DNA of 63,546 nt, the filler included. It is 13 parts of 13 records of this genome, joined end to end, with 100 filler letters (N's around TTAATTAATTAA, not from the genome) between each part and the next. Parts side by side here need not be neighbours in the genome. Positions count along the whole stretch, not along the records: positions 49,020 to 54,545 come from SRR7504441_7341; 12 more parts are not named here. The stretch is one strand, 5' to 3'. The position numbers and the translations under genes are program-made. The notes below the pieces were generated by a model that did no database searches, was not told where the DNA came from, and saw only the letters and a list, made by a program, of their open reading frames with translations. Position 1 is the stretch's first letter, and each line of letters begins with the position of its first letter. Below, in pieces: positions 16,086 to 54,952 of this stretch.

Positions 16086-18751
16086 ATGCGGCAGAGCGCA
16101 GGCCCGGGGAGTGACCCGCGGCCGTGCCACGTGCGTGGGGGGTGGGGGGGGAGGGTGCTGAGCGGGAGTTGTGCCCGGCAGAAAGGTGCTCGGTGCAAGC
16201 GTAAGGACTGCCGGTTCCAACATCCCTCCAAGACACCCCAGCGCGCCCCCCGGTCCCGGTGGACCTCGGCCCGGCGCCCCGTCGAGCCAGGGCGGGGCAG
16301 CTGGCGGCGGCTGGGCAGCTGGTGGCAGTTTCCGTCGGACCACTTGCCGGTGGCCCGTCTGCGCTGCCCGATAAGGAAGGGCGGGACGTCACAGGTGGGG
16401 GCGCTGCTGGAGGACGGCACGAGGATCGTTTCATGGAACGTTCTGGCCTCGTCGCTGGTGGCCGACACGGTCAGGACCCAGCTGGATTTTAACGGAATTC
16501 AACGGGCAGGCCAGCAGCATGGGGCTGGAGGGCTCGATGCTGACCGAGCAGAACCTGCCGGCGGGTGGCGGCTTCTACCTGTCCGGTCTGACTTGGCGGG
16601 ACGCCACGGTGCGGCTTTGTGGCCCAGAACGGCCCGGCCGGCGGGTTGTGGCTCAGAATGGCCGGGTCAGGTGCTCCAGACGGTCCTGTGCTGGCTGGAA
16701 CCGTCGAACTCACCAGTGGCGGTGATTGCACTCCAGGAATGCTCGAGGGAGCTGCTCCAGGTGCCAACGGATGGTCTATTTATAAATAGTGGCAGGTGCT
16801 GGACGCCAAGCTGTTGTATGGACCGTACCGGCGGGCCGACCCTTCAGTGTATGGCGATGCTGTGTTAGTCTATCACAGTGACATCCTGGTATATTGATTA
16901 TTCGTTAGTACTTGTACTTGTAATATAGTAGTAATAGTAGTAGTAGTAACATAGTAGTGATAGTAGCGATGCTGTGTTAGCCTATCACAGTGACATCCTG
17001 GTATATTGATACTGATTCAATGTTTGATCCGGTCAACTGTTCCACTGATTGGCGGTCTAGGTGTGCACCGAGTTCACATTACACCAGCACGCCAAGTCGC
17101 CTTTCACCAGCCGCAAAGGCGGGACCGGTCAGTGGCTCGCCCCGCAGCCAGCTCACCCAACAGGCCAGGCAAGCCGCTGGCTGTCGCCACGTTCGAGCGA
17201 ACCTCGGGGCCATACAGCGGAGCGGTGCGTGCCGGTGCGATTTTCCGTTATTTTAACGGACAGAGCGGGATGTTCCGGGTGGTCGCTGGGAAGATTCCAG
17301 GGAACCCGACAGGGTAAGTTCGTTATTTTGAGATTTGTTTTGATTCATGCATTATGGCTGATTGGTGGCGGGTGCAGAGTGCATCTTGGAGAGTATTCGC
17401 AGTTTCTGCTACAGGTGTTTAGTGGTTGGGTCGGTTAGTTGACTGGTCATCTGGCTGCAGCTCTTCTCCCGATGCAACATCCGCACTCTGCTGGTGCTCC
17501 CTGACTGAACGTCTCTACAGCGTCTCACTCGCTGCAGGTCGGAGACTTTAACTTCCGCGAGCACGAGGCGATTTATTGATCAATAACCGCCGTATTAATT
17601 AATACCCACCCCCTCAGGTGCTCAAAGCTCTCTCAGAAGTCCAACTGATTGGTTGGAATGGAATGGTCGTCACCGGGCCCGAGCGGTGCTCCCTACTCCC
17701 GGGGGGTCCTCACCGGTGGCAGCTACCCGACCAACCTACAACCGGCGGGCGAGCAAATCCCGACTGGGTTTGGGGGCGGGCCACTCGCCCCAAAGCGGAT
17801 CGATCACGTGCCAACTGACAGGCTGCGTGCTTGTGGCCTATGTGGATTGGGCAGGTGCTTCAGTTGGGCGGTTCGCCTGGGCATCAGTGTCTGTTGCTGG
17901 CGCCGGATCAGGTCCATGAGCCGTTGGATCCGGCGCTAAAAGGGCGCGGCAGGTGCTGAATGGACTGAGTTCCCTTGTGCACCTGATGGTGCCTACCCTG
18001 CGCTAACCCGCCCTTATCATAATAGCTTGTCGCTTAAGCCGAGGGCTCACAGATGCACCAAACCCGACCGGACCCACCGCCACAGCAGCCAATATGGCAG
18101 CAGGCGATGACACCGGACCAGGCAGCTCGCTCTGTCTTGTGCCCTGGCTGACCAGTGTGCAGTGCCAGCAGTTTCTAGCTGATCAGGGCCCGGGCCAGCC
18201 GCCCACCCACCGTCAAAGGTCCAGCTCAGACTTGGTAAAGCATACGATATAGTATGAGCTCTGTGCTATTCAGCTCGCACTTGGCACTGACCTCGGCTGA
18301 TCGCTCACGGCAGGTGGCCGGAGCGGCCAACGTTCCCCGCGCGCTAGCCAGGGTGTCACTCCTGCCTAATTAGGCAATGACCGTTAACAGGTGGCGCTGA
18401 ATAGACCAGAAGTGGCCTTCTCAGTATCTCGCGAGCACGCCGCGGTGAACTCGCTGGACTGTGTCCCATAAACATAGCCTGCCCTGGGGATGTTTGTCGT
18501 TGAGAGTGAACTGAGCGCCGTTCTCATGCCTTCCTACCCAGGTGGAGTGGATACTGCACCAAGACCTGAATAAAATAGCCGAGCTGCTCCAGGCTTCTTC
18601 GCTCACTTCTCCTGGGCCGTTCCGCCACTCGCCCTGGTGCCTGCCCTCGAAGCTGATCGGCCCACTTTGCGCAGGGTCTCGCCCGACGGCTCACCGGAAG
18701 GATCTCCGGGGCCACCTCCGGAGGTCCCCAAGGCGAGAGCCGGTGGGGTAG
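16086..18751 (+). CDS. CCCH zinc finger + endonuclease/exonuclease/phosphatase (CCR4/nocturnin-like) domain + C-terminal UBA-like domain; many introns, start uncertain
   Basis: C..K..RCKRKDCRFQH; RIVSWNVLA; VIALQEC; VGDFN; KRIDH; spliced VAGAANVPRALARVALNRPE...AAVEWIL is UBA-like. Confidence 0.6.
16854..17010 (+). repeat. 45-bp direct repeat (16854-16898 and 16966-17010, one mismatch) flanking a TAG-rich microsatellite
   Basis: gcgatgctgtgttag(t/c)ctatcacagtgacatcctggtatattgat occurs twice. Confidence 0.9.
18353..18390 (+). mobile_element. 38-nt intron made of the palindromic GTTAAC-family element (candidate introner copy)
   Basis: gtgtcactcctgcctaattaggcaatgaccgttaacag shares the core CC.TCC/TGCC-n4-AGG(C/A)AAT-n4-GTTAAC with five introns on the 49-54 kb contig. 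Confidence 0.55.
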
Positions 18752-48919: not shown

Positions 48920-49071
48920 NNNNNNNNNNNNNNNNNNNNNNNNNNNNNNNNNNNNNNNNNNNNTTAATTAATTAANNNNNNNNNNNNNNNNNNNNNNNNN
49001 NNNNNNNNNNNNNNNNNNNGGGGGGGGGGGGGGGGGGGGGGGGGCAGGGCGTTGCGGTTCCTAAATTCAAG

Positions 49072-49284
49072 TTGCCGGTGGACTTCCTGTACGCGCAGGC
49101 GACCTCACCGGGCATGGAAGCGTTCGTTGGCTGTCCGAATAACATGTCGTGGTGGAGTTACTTAGTATACCGCGCGCTACTGGAGCGAGGCGCCACTACT
49201 AACATCGTGGAGGTATTGAATGACGCCTCCAAGCAATTTGTAAAACAACTACCGTCTGTACAACAGCTGCAGGTGGGAGCTTAA
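49072..49284 (+). CDS. C-terminal exon of an unidentified gene
   Basis: DFLYAQATSPG..AF...SWW resembles the caspase/metacaspase-like small-subunit motif; weak. Confidence 0.3.
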   Translation: MPVDFLYAQATSPGMEAFVGCPNNMSWWSYLVYRALLERGATTNIVEVLNDASKQFVKQLPSVQQLQVGA

Positions 49285-49573
49285 GCTGAGCGTTTTTTGG
49301 GGGTTACTGGTTGGTTGGATGGCAGGTCAAGCCACGCATCGAAAGTTTCCTCAGGATGAAACTGTTCTTGAGACGAGCAGATGCATTGCAAGCTTAATTA
49401 AGTAGAAACTAACGTAATTCGTTATCGTGCGATGTGGCGACTTATGATTAAATTATGATTAAATCACGATTAAATCTCAATAGAAATTTAGTCTCTACCG
49501 ACCTATCGCCTTTCGGTTTATACGTCGCTGCTAAAAATAAGACTCCTCCCGCCACTTATAACTACTGCATAAC

Positions 49574-52047
49574 TTATAAAGTCCCAACTTGATAAGAGTC
49601 GACCTGTCCGGGTATTACCGCCTGGCAACGGATTCTAGCAAATCTATCACACCTTGAACGCAATCTGCTTCGAAAATCGCTTCGGTGCGTCATTCTCCCC
49701 CAGAACCTCGAGCACCTGACCAACAACAACAATCACCACCCGGAACCGAGCTGATCAGCGATGATTAATGCCGTTAACTATCGACCAAACAACGCACCTC
49801 CATGCTACACATCGTCGACGGACTTGTAAACCCGACGTTGACTGGGAAAAACTCCGCGTGATTCGCCGTCGGAACAGCGAATTCCAGCGCTCCGGAGCCA
49901 TTCGACTGATCCATACTCGGGACTCGCCAGAGCAGCTCGGCGTTCTGCCGTTGGATCAACGGACAATCGGTTGGGATTGATTCGTAATTATGGATTCATG
50001 TGACCTTGGAGTCGAAAGTGGCCTCGCCGTCGCAGTCTACGATCTCGGGTGCGTGCGCGGACGAGCCCGGGATGGGCACGCGAACAATGAAATCCTCCAG
50101 CTCGGCCAGCACCTGCGGAATAAATCACAATCGCGCGCGCCAATAAACCACAGCGCGGTGAATTACAATTAATTATTATTAAATTATTATTCACCTCGCC
50201 GAGTTGGTACTCGAGGTTGCAGTGGGTTTTCCCCGCCTGATTCGACGGCCAGCAAGTGACGGAAACGGGGCTCTTGGAATCGTCGCTCGTCTGCGCCCAG
50301 TCAGGCAATAGCTTAACACACCTTCCTAATTAGGCAATAGCTATAGCGTAACGCACCTGGTACCGCCACTTGAGGATTCCGAGTGCGTTGCCACATGGGA
50401 AAGCCCGGTCCTCTTTGGCTAGCCGCAGCCAAGGGTCGCTGACCCCGAAGAATGCCTCTTTTTTAATATTCGGGTGAGTCTGCAGCAACGGCAAGTGAGT
50501 GAATCCCAACTGACAAAGGCTTAATTATTGTTAATTAACTCACGTTGAACTGAAAGTCCGAAGTGGCCGAGTGCGCGATGTGGATTTTGCACTTGGCCTG
50601 CTCTTTGTCCGAGATCTGCACCGATAGTTAACTCACCTTCCAAATAAGGAAATAGTCTGTTAACAGCCCGGTGAGTTAACACCTGTAGGAATATCCGGCC
50701 CTGTATCTGCATGTTGTTAAAGTTGCCGTCTTCGTCGTAACTGATATTCGCCGACTCCTCCACCGTCAGGTTAATCGCCTGCGGAGCACCACCAGCAAAT
50801 CAATAATAAATCAATAATAAATCAATGAATCATAAATAATCCGCCAGCGCGCACCTCCAGTTCGGCCGCGTTGCCCGCCTGCTTCGCGACCGGATCCACG
50901 ACCGCGGTCGGATCTCCCATAATCTCGCCTGTCCGTTGCGGTCAAAAGCCGTTAAACGCCGTTGGTCCGCGCACCGTCCTTTTCCAGTTGATCGAGCAGC
51001 ATCGAGCCCTTTTGCGCTTTCGACTTGATGGACATTTTCATCGACGGCTTTTTCACTTTCGACTCGTTCACCGGCGCCGAATCGTAAAACGTCTCGCCTG
51101 CCCCCCCCTCGCTCCGCCCCCCGCCCCCCGGGGGCAGCAGCCACCGTACTCGGCCGGCTTGGAGATGATCCCGCTGCCCCCGACGTCCGACATGCTCCCG
51201 ATCTGCCCGCCCTGCGCCGTCGAGCCAAAACCGGTGTTCCCGAGCCCGCCTGTCGGTTGGAATTAACGGAAACCAACGGTTTCGAATAATAATACCGTTG
51301 CCGAACTTGCGCTCGGTGGCCCGCTTTGCGTCCATCTCCTCCACCCTCCGCTCCATGTTGGCCCTGGCCTCGGCCTTCTTGGCCTCCTCGAGCTCCTTGT
51401 GCATCTGATACTCCGAGGACGACATCTCCATGTTGGTCCGCACTTGGGCCACTGTCACCTGCCCAGGCTCACCCCATCCGCCGCCTCTACGAGCCCCGCC
51501 CTCTCTATCTATCTCTGTGTGTGTGTGCAGTGCGTGGCACCTGCTCGCGATAGCCGTTTGAGATGAGCTCGTCGAGCGCGTTGACGAACTCGAACGTGTT
51601 TTCGATCTGCCGGTCCTCCTCGCCCTCGTGCAGCTCCGGACAGTACTCCACCCACAGCCGCGACATCCTGTACACACACACCCCGCACACGTCAGCCCGC
51701 GTACCAGAGCGGGGGGGGGGGGGGAGGTTTAGCAACGGACAGTTTCAGCGTCTCGAGGTCCTCCACGATGTTCGACTGCTTGGAGGTGATCAGGATCAGG
51801 TACAGGTCCTCCAGCGGGTGGTACAAGTACCGCACATTCCCCGTCTCGACAAAGGTGTGCTGGGCCCCGGCCCCGCCCAGCAGCTTGGGAAAGGCGGTGA
51901 TGAGCCCCTCCACCCGCATGCGGGTCATCTCAACGAACTGTCGGGAGACCAGCAGCTTGCCGTTCCGGCTGGTCACCGCCGCCGCGAGCACCACCTGCCA
52001 TTACCACACCAGCTCGCCCGGCCGCCACACAGAAAACGCCGCACCAT
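49574..52047 (-). CDS. ARCN1: Coatomer subunit delta (archain), about 15 exons
   Basis: M|VVLAAAV...LVSRQF.EMTR.RVEGL..AFPKL, QHTFVET.NVRY.Y.P, SNI.EDLETL; mu-homology FNTHPNI, LKWR, VTCWP, GALEF, FFPVNV; ends [10 protein letters not shown]. Confidence 0.95.
50291..50356 (-). mobile_element. delta-COP intron carrying the GTTAAC-family element (50312-50352, antisense to the gene)
   Basis: Plus strand cttaacacaccttcctaattaggcaatagctatagcgtaac; aggcaatagct occurs twice in the intron. Confidence 0.6.
50616..50682 (-). mobile_element. delta-COP intron carrying the 38-bp element (50627-50664) and an 11-bp inverted repeat (50627-50637 / 50670-50680)
   Basis: gttaactcaccttccaaataaggaaatagtctgttaac; gttaactcacc...ggtgagttaac is a perfect inverted repeat. 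Confidence 0.65.
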
Positions 52048-52463
52048 GTGCTTCTTCCGTTGTGGAAAACACCAAAGTCGTTGCACTCACAGAGAGAGAA
52101 GAGGGCGCTGCGCCACACTGCGGCGGGAGGCAAAGCCAGATGAGAAACCCGTTCGAGACCACCCAGCTGGCCCGAAGCGACTGGCAGAATGCCGTTGGAT
52201 CGCGCGAGCCCGCCCTATTCCGACGCTACCGCTCCACCGACGCCGCCCAATATTCCGTTGGCCAGCCGATCTTCGGCGGCACCGTGGCGGCCATTGACCC
52301 ATCCTCCGGCTGCGTGGTGGTCAGAGACGGCCGTTGCCGGATGGACGGGACGCCGGTGGCTTGCCGGCGAGAGTCCCGTCCAACGGACTTTGCCGTTGGC
52401 GTCCCGGCCCGGCTGTTCACCCCGGGCGGCTGGCGGTGGGTGCTGCCGGTGGCAGTCGATCCG

Positions 52464-54165
52464 ATGGCCTCCGCCATCTACTACGACGCCCACCGGGAGG
52501 TGGAGCCGCCCGGGGCAACGGAAAGTCCGTTACCGTCCGGCGTCCAACGGCAATCGGGGGTGCCCCGGCTCGAGCTGAGCCCGGGAATGTTGAGCCAGAC
52601 CAAAAAGGGGCTCCATCACGAGACCGGGCACGACCGGCTCAAGAAGAGCTTAACGGATAGCGATAACGGACAATTGAAGCGGCACATGACGCAGGCCATG
52701 TCCATGCTCGGACAGCTCAACGCTGACGTTGACCCTGACGGCGATGGTTGGGGATTCCTCGGCGGTGGGAGCGCTACCGAGGCGGCGCCGCAGTACCGCG
52801 GCCGGTCGAGCCAGGTGACAACGGAATTTTGGGCGTCCAACGGCATTTGGTCTGACCGTTGGGGATTGCAGGCGCTGCTGCAGCTGATCGAAGACGTGTT
52901 TGAGTACCTCGATTCGTCGGGAGACGGCGTGCTGCACGTTTCCGAGGTGATTTCGAATTGTTTTTATTAATTGTTTTTATTAATTGATTTAACGGCAGGT
53001 TCTGCACTCGCTCGGCCAGAAAATGAGCTCGAGCAACGAGGAAGAAGCCCAAGCCGATTTCGATCGGATCGAACGGGCAATGGCGAGAAACGACTCGCGG
53101 AGCGAGCGGGACGGGCAGGTTAACTTAACAGATATGCCGAATAAGGAAATGAGTGTTAACGGCAGATCGACTTCGAGGAGTGGCAGGAGTACTGGGAGTC
53201 CACGGCTGCCGGGACCGAGGAGCTGGCGGCCATGTCCACTCTCCAGTCGATGCTGGTATTATTATTATTTATTATTCTTGTTCCGAACAGGCCCGGCGGT
53301 TGGGACTGATGCGGTCAACGGCAGAAACACCTGCGGCTGCAGCCCGGCAACGTCAAGGAACGCCCCGGCTCGCCCGGGCTCTCGGGCATGGCGATGAGCA
53401 AAGGGTGAGTAACTGTTTTCAACTGCTATTCCGTTGACCGTTTCTGTGGCAGCCAAGCTGCCGAGGCCAAGGCGCAGGCTATGCTCGAGCGAAAGCAACG
53501 GCTGAGCGTCCGACGGGTGTCGCGAGAGGAGGTTAACAGCTCCTTCCTTTAAAGGAAATGACTGTTAACACAGAGCGAGAAGGCGAAGGCGATGGAGTTC
53601 AGCGAGGAGATGATCGCTCTGATCGTCGGCGACAAGGTGTTAACAGCACCTTCCCGATTAGGCAATAACCACTTAACACAGGAGCTCAAGTTCAGCTTCC
53701 GGAGCACCACTCCAAAGCTCGAGGCCCTTGCCACGGAGACGTTTTCTATGCTCGACGCTGACGGGAACGGAATTTTGAGCTTTCCGGAGGTCCTCGACTC
53801 ACTGGGCGAGCTGGATGAGCACGGCGGGTGAGGCCGGCGGTTGGGAATTGCCGTTGACGTGTGCTATTTTTAGGTTTTACAAGCTGCTCGAGCGGAAGAT
53901 GGAGGCGAAAAACATTTCGGAGTCCGAATTGTTCAAGGTTTTTTCATTTAAATTGCAGCTGTAACGGCCGGCAGTTGGAATTCCCGGTCGAGCTGTGGTT
54001 AGACTACTGGCAATCGACGGAACTTCCGGAATCGCGCGCCATCGCGCTGCTTTCATCGGTACCCCCCCCCCCCCGAATAAGGTTGGTGAGTGACGGCAGA
54101 TCCGGCGGCGAATGATAAAACGGCAAAAGCCTAGCGAATTGCCGCACCTAGGTGCCAAGGCCTAG
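52464..54165 (+). CDS. Multi-EF-hand calcium-binding protein, about 11 exons
   Basis: EF loops DSSGDGVLHVSE, spliced RDGQ|IDFEEW and DADGNGILSFPE; frame is maintained only by removing the AT-rich introns. Confidence 0.75.
53119..53165 (+). mobile_element. 47-nt intron containing the element (53124-53160)
   Basis: cttaacagatatgccgaataaggaaatgagtgttaac; its removal restores the EF-hand DGQIDFEEW. Confidence 0.6.
53532..53573 (+). mobile_element. 42-nt intron that is essentially the 38-bp palindromic element plus acag
   Basis: gttaacagctccttccttt|aaaggaaatgactgttaac pairs at 15 of 19 positions; it has an in-frame TAA, so it must be spliced if the gene continues. Confidence 0.7.
53637..53681 (+). 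mobile_element. 45-nt putative intron containing the element (53639-53677)
   Basis: gtgttaacagcaccttcccgattaggcaataaccacttaacacag, with gtgttaa/ttaacac terminal inverted repeat. It is in frame and stop-free, so splicing is inferred. Confidence 0.6.
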
Positions 54166-54952
54166 GCTATCTATCATCCGGAGCTGGCCAACCGAACAAA
54201 TTCCAACGGCTTTTATTGCCTAACGGCTTTCTCAAGTCAAGTGCCGCGGAGGAGCGGCCGGATATTTTATTTAGTAATTTATTGTCATGAGGAGTATTAA
54301 TTATTCGTGCTGGCGTGATAAGTTGCCGATTACGACGAGATTCTATTCATTAATTGTATTCTCAACTGTATTGTGCCGGGTTTTCTCAACTGTAGTTACA
54401 CCCGGCCTGGGTCCACCGACGACTGACACAGCGCCCGGCCGCCCGCAGTTCGGCACATTTTCAGCTTGCTCCGTGGGTTCAAGTTCACAACGGCACAGCA
54501 AATGCCAGCTGGGCTGATGGGCGGCGTCCGTTAGGATGGGCGGCANNNNNNNNNNNNNNNNNNNNNNNNNNNNNNNNNNNNNNNNNNNNTTAATTAATTA
54601 ANNNNNNNNNNNNNNNNNNNNNNNNNNNNNNNNNNNNNNNNNNNNGGGGGGGGGCAAAAAGACTCCAGGGAAATTTCATCGATTTCGGGGCGGGGCGGGG
54701 GCACGTACGTAACGTACGTAAAGGTGAAGCAAGCCGTGTCCCCGTCTGCGGCATTCGATCAACTGGATCGAGACCCTTGGACCCTTGTGGCCTCTTCGAG
54801 TCCTGCACCTTAGATGCCAATTTCCACACACGTGAAAGGAAGAGAGTGAGTTTTGAGCATGAGCATGAATCGATCTCATGCAATGCCAATTACGTGGCCA
54901 ATTACAAGTTGAATGATATAGAGAATCTTTTATATACGGTGAGCATCACGTG

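Follow-up and report, generated by a model that had tools for sequence, protein, structure and literature searches.

Can a single sequence of about 40 nt make up introns in unrelated genes, and do so in either orientation? The question is raised by a stretch of DNA from the genome bin of an uncultured marine eukaryote, here called the window: 63,546 bases in which 13 contigs of 3.1-8.3 kb each are separated by N spacers, representing ~62.5 kb of the bin. A first-pass annotation of the window had reported six introns that share a GTTAAC-bounded palindromic element and had proposed that element as a new introner family. Five copies (A-E) are on contig 11 (positions 49020-54545 of the window) and the sixth (F) is on contig 4 (15989-19176); A and B sit in introns of a gene for delta-COP, and C, D and E in a gene for an EF-hand protein.

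We find that this observation largely stands. All six sequences belong to one family, present in either orientation relative to the gene, and the reading of that family as introner-like is the best single explanation for it, though it is unproven and we hold it tentatively. Below we set out why the repeat is real, which of its copies are introns, and how the origin of these introns by insertion compares with other accounts of the same facts.

One repeat family at six sites

All six sequences quoted by the first-pass annotation are present at the positions it gave. A general repeat search run without any prior motif also lists the family (repeat families D3 and D5), and it aligns copy F on contig 4 with copy A on contig 11 at 20 of 22 core bases. 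For leave-one-out searches, an nhmmer model was built from five copies and run over all 13 contigs with the sixth held out. The held-out copy was each time the best match outside the training set (E values: A 8.8e-6, F 1.9e-5, E 1.4e-4, B 6e-4, D 3.4e-3 and C 0.14), and no unrelated sequence had an E value below 1.9; copy C is the weakest member of the family. The hexamer GTTAAC itself occurs 12 times in the window, with nine of these occurrences on contig 11, against 4.64 expected, and none of 100 shuffles reached 12. The repeat search and the leave-one-out searches thus uphold one motif common to six sites, in three loci and on two contigs. The copies, with their extra pieces and a solitary fragment, are as follows.

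50291..50356, minus strand (delta-COP): intron A, 66 nt, phase 0; core at 50312-50352 in plus orientation, antisense to the gene
50303 and 50332: direct repeat AGGCAATAGCT, an extra piece of copy A, in which a partial extra right arm precedes the core
50616..50682, minus strand (delta-COP): intron B, 67 nt, phase 0; core at 50627-50664 in plus orientation, antisense to the gene
50627-50637 and 50670-50680: perfect 11-nt outer inverted repeat of copy B, with an extra inverted left arm after the core
53119..53165, plus strand (EF-hand gene): intron C, 47 nt, phase 0; core at 53124-53160, doubled TTAAC at the left end; GGCAG flanks the GTTAAC...GTTAAC block on either side
53532..53573, plus strand (EF-hand gene): intron D, 42 nt, phase 0; element at 53532-53569 with 8-nt perfect inverted ends GTTAACAG/CTGTTAAC, followed by ACAG
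53637..53681, plus strand (EF-hand gene): candidate intron E, 45 nt, phase 0; element at 53639-53677, GT..CAG ends
18353..18390, plus strand (contig 4): copy F, 38 nt, GT..CAG ends; left end degenerate (GTGTCAC), right end CCGTTAAC plus AG
49773..49783, minus strand: CGATAGTTAAC, a solitary fragment of an arm in the 82-nt delta-COP intron 49716-49797; this 11-mer recurs next to copy B in the opposite direction

Read on the plus strand, all copies follow one layout: (G)TTAAC(AG), CNCC-TTCC, ~3 nt, WWAGGMAAT, 2-9 nt and (CTG)TTAAC. The element measures ~38-42 nt and consists of imperfect inverted repeats with the ends (GT)GTTAACAG ... CTGTTAAC(AC). Its core is asymmetric in a fixed manner, the left side having CNCC-TTCC and the right side GGMAAT-NA, and the difference between the arms, as judged by eye, is identical in all six copies (CNCC on the left, an ATGA-like sequence on the right). 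Because the arms differ alike in all copies, the copies descend from one asymmetric ancestor and are not independent hairpins. Thirteen of the ~38 columns are invariant, and these cluster in TAAC, CC and AGG.AAT.

The claim that the element folds as a hairpin holds for D and B, whose predicted RNA folds beat those of shuffled sequences (z -4.6 and -3.1, respectively), and does not hold for A, C, E and F (z -0.95 to -1.6). D alone is a good palindrome, with fold-back complementarity at 15 of 19 positions compared with 7-11 of 15-19 in the other copies. Perfect inverted ends are found in D (8 nt) and, as the outer repeat, in B (11 nt); those of the remaining copies are degenerate. A search of Rfam gave no match for the element hairpins. 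The partial inverted end that had been noted at 49773-49783 is present, as the solitary fragment listed above.

The orientation of the delta-COP copies was settled with strand-specific scores. A model made from C, D, E and F matches A with 14.2 bits and B with 11.6 bits on the plus strand, and gives 6.8 bits or no match on the minus strand; A and B are therefore antisense to delta-COP, as originally described.

Copies were also sought in other collections with the pattern TTAACN{6,9}CCNNNWWAGGMAATN{4,7}TTAAC, which has 18 specified bases and fits four of the six copies. This pattern has four matches in the 62.5-kb window against 34 in 596 Gb of GTDB prokaryote genomes, a comparison of densities that is partly circular in that the pattern was derived from the window's copies. 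The GTDB matches are all single and all in bacterial or archaeal records. Metagenome contigs returned 69 loci with one match each, at 25-51% GC and with flanks that have nothing in common, and these results did not include the four copies of the window that fit the pattern; viral contigs returned five loci, all with one identical sequence. The matches in these three collections are chance only. Since the window's own copies were not returned, the organism is absent from the scanned collections, and the scans therefore say nothing about other copies.

Introns that carry the element

Whether the copies are introns depends on the two genes of contig 11 that carry five of them.

49574..52047, minus strand: delta-COP (coatomer delta) gene, spliced model of 527 codons with 14 introns of 46-82 nt; 11 RNA joints
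52140..54165, plus strand: EF-hand gene, 532 codons with 9 modelled introns; 3 introns with RNA joints; an EF-hand module repeated within the gene

The delta-COP product aligns over its full length and without gaps at every junction with four transcript-derived relatives (P0001-P0004, 67-73% identity). These are its nearest relatives; matches that bear a name are called coatomer subunit delta and have below 50% identity over the full length, and viral contigs, searched for relatives of delta-COP, gave none. The EF-hand gene has a Pfam EF-hand domain at 53685-53828, a relative in P0121, and an internal repeat with 33% identity over 94 residues (blastp E 9e-11). RNA evidence was taken from Logan contigs of four marine metatranscriptome runs of three studies, which were mapped on contig 11 and not on contig 4. 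Fifteen joints were listed from these contigs, 14 of them with GT..AG or CT..AC ends, and introns A, C and E are left uncovered.

Six introns had been claimed; four of them stand. Intron B is spliced, with the joint 50615>50683 in three runs of three studies (X2, X3 and X5). Intron D, which has an in-frame TAA inside, is spliced in run X2 (joint 53529>53572, cut +2), and run X1 has a loose end at 53531 that continues with the start of the exon after intron D. For introns A and C the support comes from protein alignments and the reading frame: P0001-P0004 align without gaps across A (...WRYQ|TSDDS...), which also contains an in-frame TAA, and the removal of C, whose length is not a multiple of three, creates an EF-hand loop (...ERDGQ|IDFEEW...) found without interruption in P0121. 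E and F are candidates only, and protein searches aimed at verifying them found nothing. The gene around F had been described as an EEP gene, which Pfam does not bear out, as it gives no EEP domain there and only a weak CCCH finger (E 0.021); a protein search gave no homologues of this gene. Phase 0 had likewise been claimed for all six. The gene models agree for A-E, and F is without intron support; 14 of the 18 other introns of contig 11 are in phase 0 too. The delta-COP intron 49716-49797, which harbours the solitary arm fragment, is confirmed by an RNA joint (49713>49796, cut +2).

In C-F the element makes up nearly the whole intron, and its ends lie 0-5 nt from the intron ends. D is the element followed by ACAG, E is GT, the element and ACAG, F is the element and AG, and C is G, TTAAC, the element and GGCAG. 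The intron of antisense copy B begins with GTGTTAAC, as does that of sense copy E.

The shared ends could be thought to reflect the splice signals of short introns in general, so the other introns of contig 11 are informative. All 24 introns listed, element introns included, start with GT, 16 of them with GTG; 23 end in CAG, and every one ends in CAG or TAG. The 18 introns of contig 11 without the element share only the signal GT(G)...CAG. TTAAC occurs within the first 12 nt of four of the six element introns and in none of these 18, and within the last 20 nt of five of the six and in one of the 18. Since the other introns lack terminal TTAAC, the shared element ends are not a general splice-signal constraint. 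The same 18 introns span 37-82 nt, and the earlier remark that the element has the length of a modal 38-43-nt intron is therefore not sustained.

Other features of the splice signals were seen alongside. YAAC-like, that is branch-like, motifs lie 5-18 nt upstream of the CAG acceptor in introns without the element, and such minimal signals with YAAC close to the acceptor resemble the fused branch/acceptor motifs of Trichomonas and Giardia. An AACGG-type motif just upstream of the acceptor (YAAC[GC]G-N0-5-CAG) occurs 11 times on contig 11. The density of AACGG/CCGTT is 8.1 per kb on contig 11, 4.1 on contig 4 and 1.1-2.2 on the other 11 contigs, and CCGTTG/CAACGG is over-represented in the window as a whole (68 occurrences, 26 of them on contig 11, against 36.3 expected; 0 of 100 shuffles reach 68). 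A motif of this type is also found within exon 1 of the EF-hand gene, and it could be a branch-point motif or a Myb-like motif (YAACGG). Three introns (51098-51144, 51668-51740 and 54059-54099) contain long C/G homopolymer runs (C13-C14 and G-rich tracts) and are spliced with no obvious branch-point motif.

A proposed origin by insertion and its alternatives

Our preferred reading, to which we give slightly less than even credence, is that the copies are a small, old, introner-like family of homologous ~38-42-nt elements that resembles miniature inverted-repeat transposable elements (MITEs) and arose by insertion. In such a scheme, insertion at the DNA level directly after an exonic (C)AG would put the element's own GT at the 5' end of the new intron, and the 3' AG would be taken from a short duplication of CAG or AG. 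The right-arm TTAAC would act as the branch point, and splicing would take out the inserted DNA precisely, like any minimal spliceosomal intron. As each end is an inverted copy of the other, an element inserted either way has GT(G)TTAAC on its 5' side and TTAAC close to its 3' end. TTAAC fits the branch-point consensus, and the right arm probably serves in this way. At 53532-53573, where the first-pass annotation had assigned these roles to the arms, the left arm does give the GT and a TTAAC does lie near the 3' CAG, while its use as a branch point is a reading of the motif. As for the broader proposal of a tiny DNA element that functions in either orientation, the family, its supply of GT and TTAAC, and both of its orientations are borne out, and its mobility is unproven with six old copies.

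The distribution of the copies speaks to insertion. They occur on two contigs, in genes that are unrelated, and some run with transcription and others against it, which fits DNA insertion better than reverse splicing. Furthermore, the upstream exon ends in AG in five of five element introns of contig 11 versus 8 of 18 others (p=0.038), and in CAG in three of five versus one of 18 (p=0.021), with GGCAG on both flanks of C; these p-values rest on 5 versus 18 introns, and a CAG/AG duplication is confounded with the universal CAG acceptor, which counts against the scheme.

TTAA is the target of piggyBac-type transposons, and the element had been linked to them on that basis. This link does not hold, as both TTAACs are inside the intron and there is no TTAA at any exon junction. 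With the TTAACs spliced out and the junctions free of TTAA, TTAAC is to be seen as part of the element's inverted ends. TTAA was considered as a duplicated exonic target and rejected, since the delta-COP relatives align across A and B without an indel. The likeness to piggyBac-type TTAA transposons and MITEs is that four of the six copies have TTAA at either end of the core and that the tandem pieces in A and C share a TTAAC; unlike in piggyBac-type elements, the TTAAs are removed with the intron and the ends inside TTAA are CAG...CTG.

Several further points weigh against an insertion origin. The data hold six copies only, and a profile search for a seventh found none in the window, the other 11 contigs included; beyond the six there are only the arm fragments at 49773-49783, before A and after B. 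Five of the six lie within 3.4 kb, and all six have the same absolute orientation, on the plus strand. Their mean pairwise identity is only 65% (range 51-75%), so there is no sign of recent activity, and by this divergence the copies appear old. Pfam found no transposase domain among the 63 long frames of the window. The simple model does not fit A and B, whose cores are internal to introns of 66-67 nt and accompanied by extra arm pieces. Candidate intron E is in frame and stop-free, is crossed by no RNA contig, and lies where P0121 is too different for comparison. The flanks of F give no clear coding signal in a weak codon-usage model trained on ~2.4 kb. Intron C is at, or at most two codons from, the site that intron 53938-53974 occupies in the internal repeat of the gene, so the intron position possibly predates the element. 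Lastly, the denominator is uncertain because the composition of contigs 11 and 4 sets them apart from the rest of the bin.

Some of these points are better accommodated by the main rival, which is that a real, perhaps once mobile, repeat entered pre-existing introns or replaced their sequence but did not create them. Survival in introns would be expected if a gene-dense genome offers little other neutral DNA, and non-coding space is indeed scarce here, as the two genes start only 92 nt apart. The shared position of intron C and intron 53938-53974, both in phase 0, would follow directly, and the next pair of introns (53256-53324 and 54059-54099) has the same two-codon offset; the internal cores of A and B, with other intron sequence on their flanks, would follow as well. 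What this account has difficulty with is C-F, which keep at most 9-10 nt of non-element intron when the shortest other introns are 37-41 nt. It needs near-total deletion of the host intron four times, with the element ends coming to lie exactly at the splice sites, and we consider it unlikely, though a serious contender.

Copying from intron to intron without a transposon, by local gene conversion, duplication or reverse splicing among neighbouring introns, is an improbable third account. The clustering of five copies in 3.4 kb of two adjacent genes, in one absolute orientation, is what it would predict, and the copies are short and without a clear target duplication. However, F is on another contig and has its closest relative in A (75%), pairs within a gene are no more alike than pairs between genes, and the flanking exons are unrelated. 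Reverse splicing in particular predicts the sense orientation only, and A and B are antisense.

The copies might instead have been shaped by selection on an intronic motif, either an RNA hairpin that joins the intron ends or a DNA palindrome with a CCTAATTAGG-like core to which a dimeric protein binds. End-joining hairpin introns are described for Amoebophrya and euglenids (PMC7789003, PMC11282704), D and B do fold significantly better than shuffles, and the invariant columns cluster in TAAC, CC and AGG.AAT. But 13 invariant columns of ~38 is near our own rough estimate for neutral decay at 65% identity, and four of the six copies fold no better than shuffles. A hairpin would hide the branch point as well as the 5' splice site, the RNA of antisense copies would be a different one, and no Rfam family matches, making this account distinctly improbable. 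Chance resemblance combined with the shared splice signals of minimal introns is very improbable and is largely refuted by the unprompted repeat search and the leave-one-out nhmmer searches, for although TTAAC agrees with a branch-point consensus and CAG or TAG closes every intron here, held-out copies reach E values of 8.8e-6 without unrelated matches, the 18 other introns lack the motif, and the shared core CCTTCC-N3-WWAGGMAAT is not a splice signal.

The bin and the known introners

Pfam matches on long frames (VPS9, U-box, Kelch, kinase, GH31, TCP-1 and a PKS module) indicate that the source is a eukaryote. In tetranucleotide use, contigs 11 and 4 stand apart from the rest of the bin and contig 10 is a third outlier: the correlation with other contigs is 0.44-0.77 for contig 11 and 0.65-0.85 for contig 4, compared with mostly 0.84-0.95 among the rest. 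Because these three contigs correlate poorly with the others, the bin may not be homogeneous. Intron density is also uneven, with 23 introns in ~4.6 kb of contig 11; other contigs have stop-free frames of 470-900 codons and contiguous Pfam domains.

Contig 4 has two 45-nt direct repeats (16854-16898 and 16966-17010), 98% identical, around a low-complexity stretch rich in TAG and TAA. Each contains a small inverted repeat, CTGTG...CACAG, and they may belong to another repeat family. On contig 11, the delta-COP and EF-hand genes are arranged head to head, with 52048-52139 between their start codons, and delta-COP has a 50-nt intron immediately 3' of its ATG (51995-52044). Exon 1 of the EF-hand gene (52140-52946) encodes an N-terminal part of ~230 residues without a Pfam match and with six relatives in 1.8 billion representative proteins; by eye, this part is present twice in P0123. 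It is an uncharacterised conserved domain fused to EF-hand modules.

The introners of Micromonas pusilla and Aureococcus are non-autonomous DNA transposons. The family described here is like them in that a repeat with inverted ends forms introns in unrelated genes, in that the element carries one splice site while a duplicated target of ~3 nt plausibly gives the other, and in that splicing is exact and leaves the protein unchanged (there is no indel at the junctions of A and B). Such a division, with one site brought in by the element and its partner formed from the duplicated target, is the published logic of introners (PMC11282704, PMC9860276). The present family differs from the M. pusilla families, which are ~100-190 nt long (PMC9860276), in its length of 38-42 nt and its six diverged copies.

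PMC9860276 defines introners as similar introns in non-paralogous genes, with the similarity ending at or near the intron boundaries. Here, six copies occur in three non-paralogous loci, with four of them supported as introns, and the element ends within 5 nt of the intron ends in C-F, the core being internal in A and B. Splicing is seen in three runs for B, in one contig and a loose end for D, and through protein alignment for A and C. Terminal inverted repeats of 8 nt in D and 11 nt in B are accompanied by degenerate ones in the other copies.

The catalogue in PMC9860276 holds 548 introner families from 175 genomes, including metagenome-assembled genomes (MAGs) from Tara, with median lengths of 30-654 nt and copy numbers from 5 to >2,000. 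Many of those families have terminal inverted repeats, target-site duplications or both, a 55-nt family of a Tetraselmis MAG being scored positive for both, and the method considered insertions in opposite orientation. Like the Tara MAG introners, the present family comes from the GC-rich genome of an uncultured marine eukaryote and consists of very short GT-AG introns made from a repeat with inverted ends, and its size is close to the lower limit published there.

Two other systems share some of these traits. The introner elements of Amoebophrya, also a marine protist, have inverted repeats of 8-20 nt at their ends, fold as hairpins and show direct repeats of 3-5 nt over the boundaries (PMC7789003). 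Their introns, however, are mostly non-canonical and without family-specific inverted repeats, whereas here canonical GT...CAG introns have one shared sequence. For the nonconventional introns of euglenids, an origin from MITEs has been proposed, and short inverted CAG/CTG near both ends, whose pairing joins the intron ends there, recalls the arms of our element (PMC11282704). The euglenid introns differ in their non-canonical junctions and spliceosome-independent removal, while those described here have GT...CAG ends and CAG/CTG at different distances from the ends.

On this comparison, a hairpin-like introner of ~40 nt would be a small example of the published kind and not a new category. 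It is possible, but doubtful, that it is one of the smallest self-sufficient intron-generating transposons, a near-palindrome of 38-42 nt whose mirrored ends would give a 5' splice site and a branch point either way and which would account for about one-fifth of the introns in an intron-rich part of the genome (5 of 23, on contig 11). As it stands, the finding adds a plausible small family to a phenomenon with hundreds of catalogued families. If it were confirmed genome-wide, a ~40-nt element composed of two mirrored arms of splice signals would mark the lower size limit for DNA that makes introns, and would show how one element can create introns in either orientation, thereby informing our view of bursts of intron gain in marine protists.

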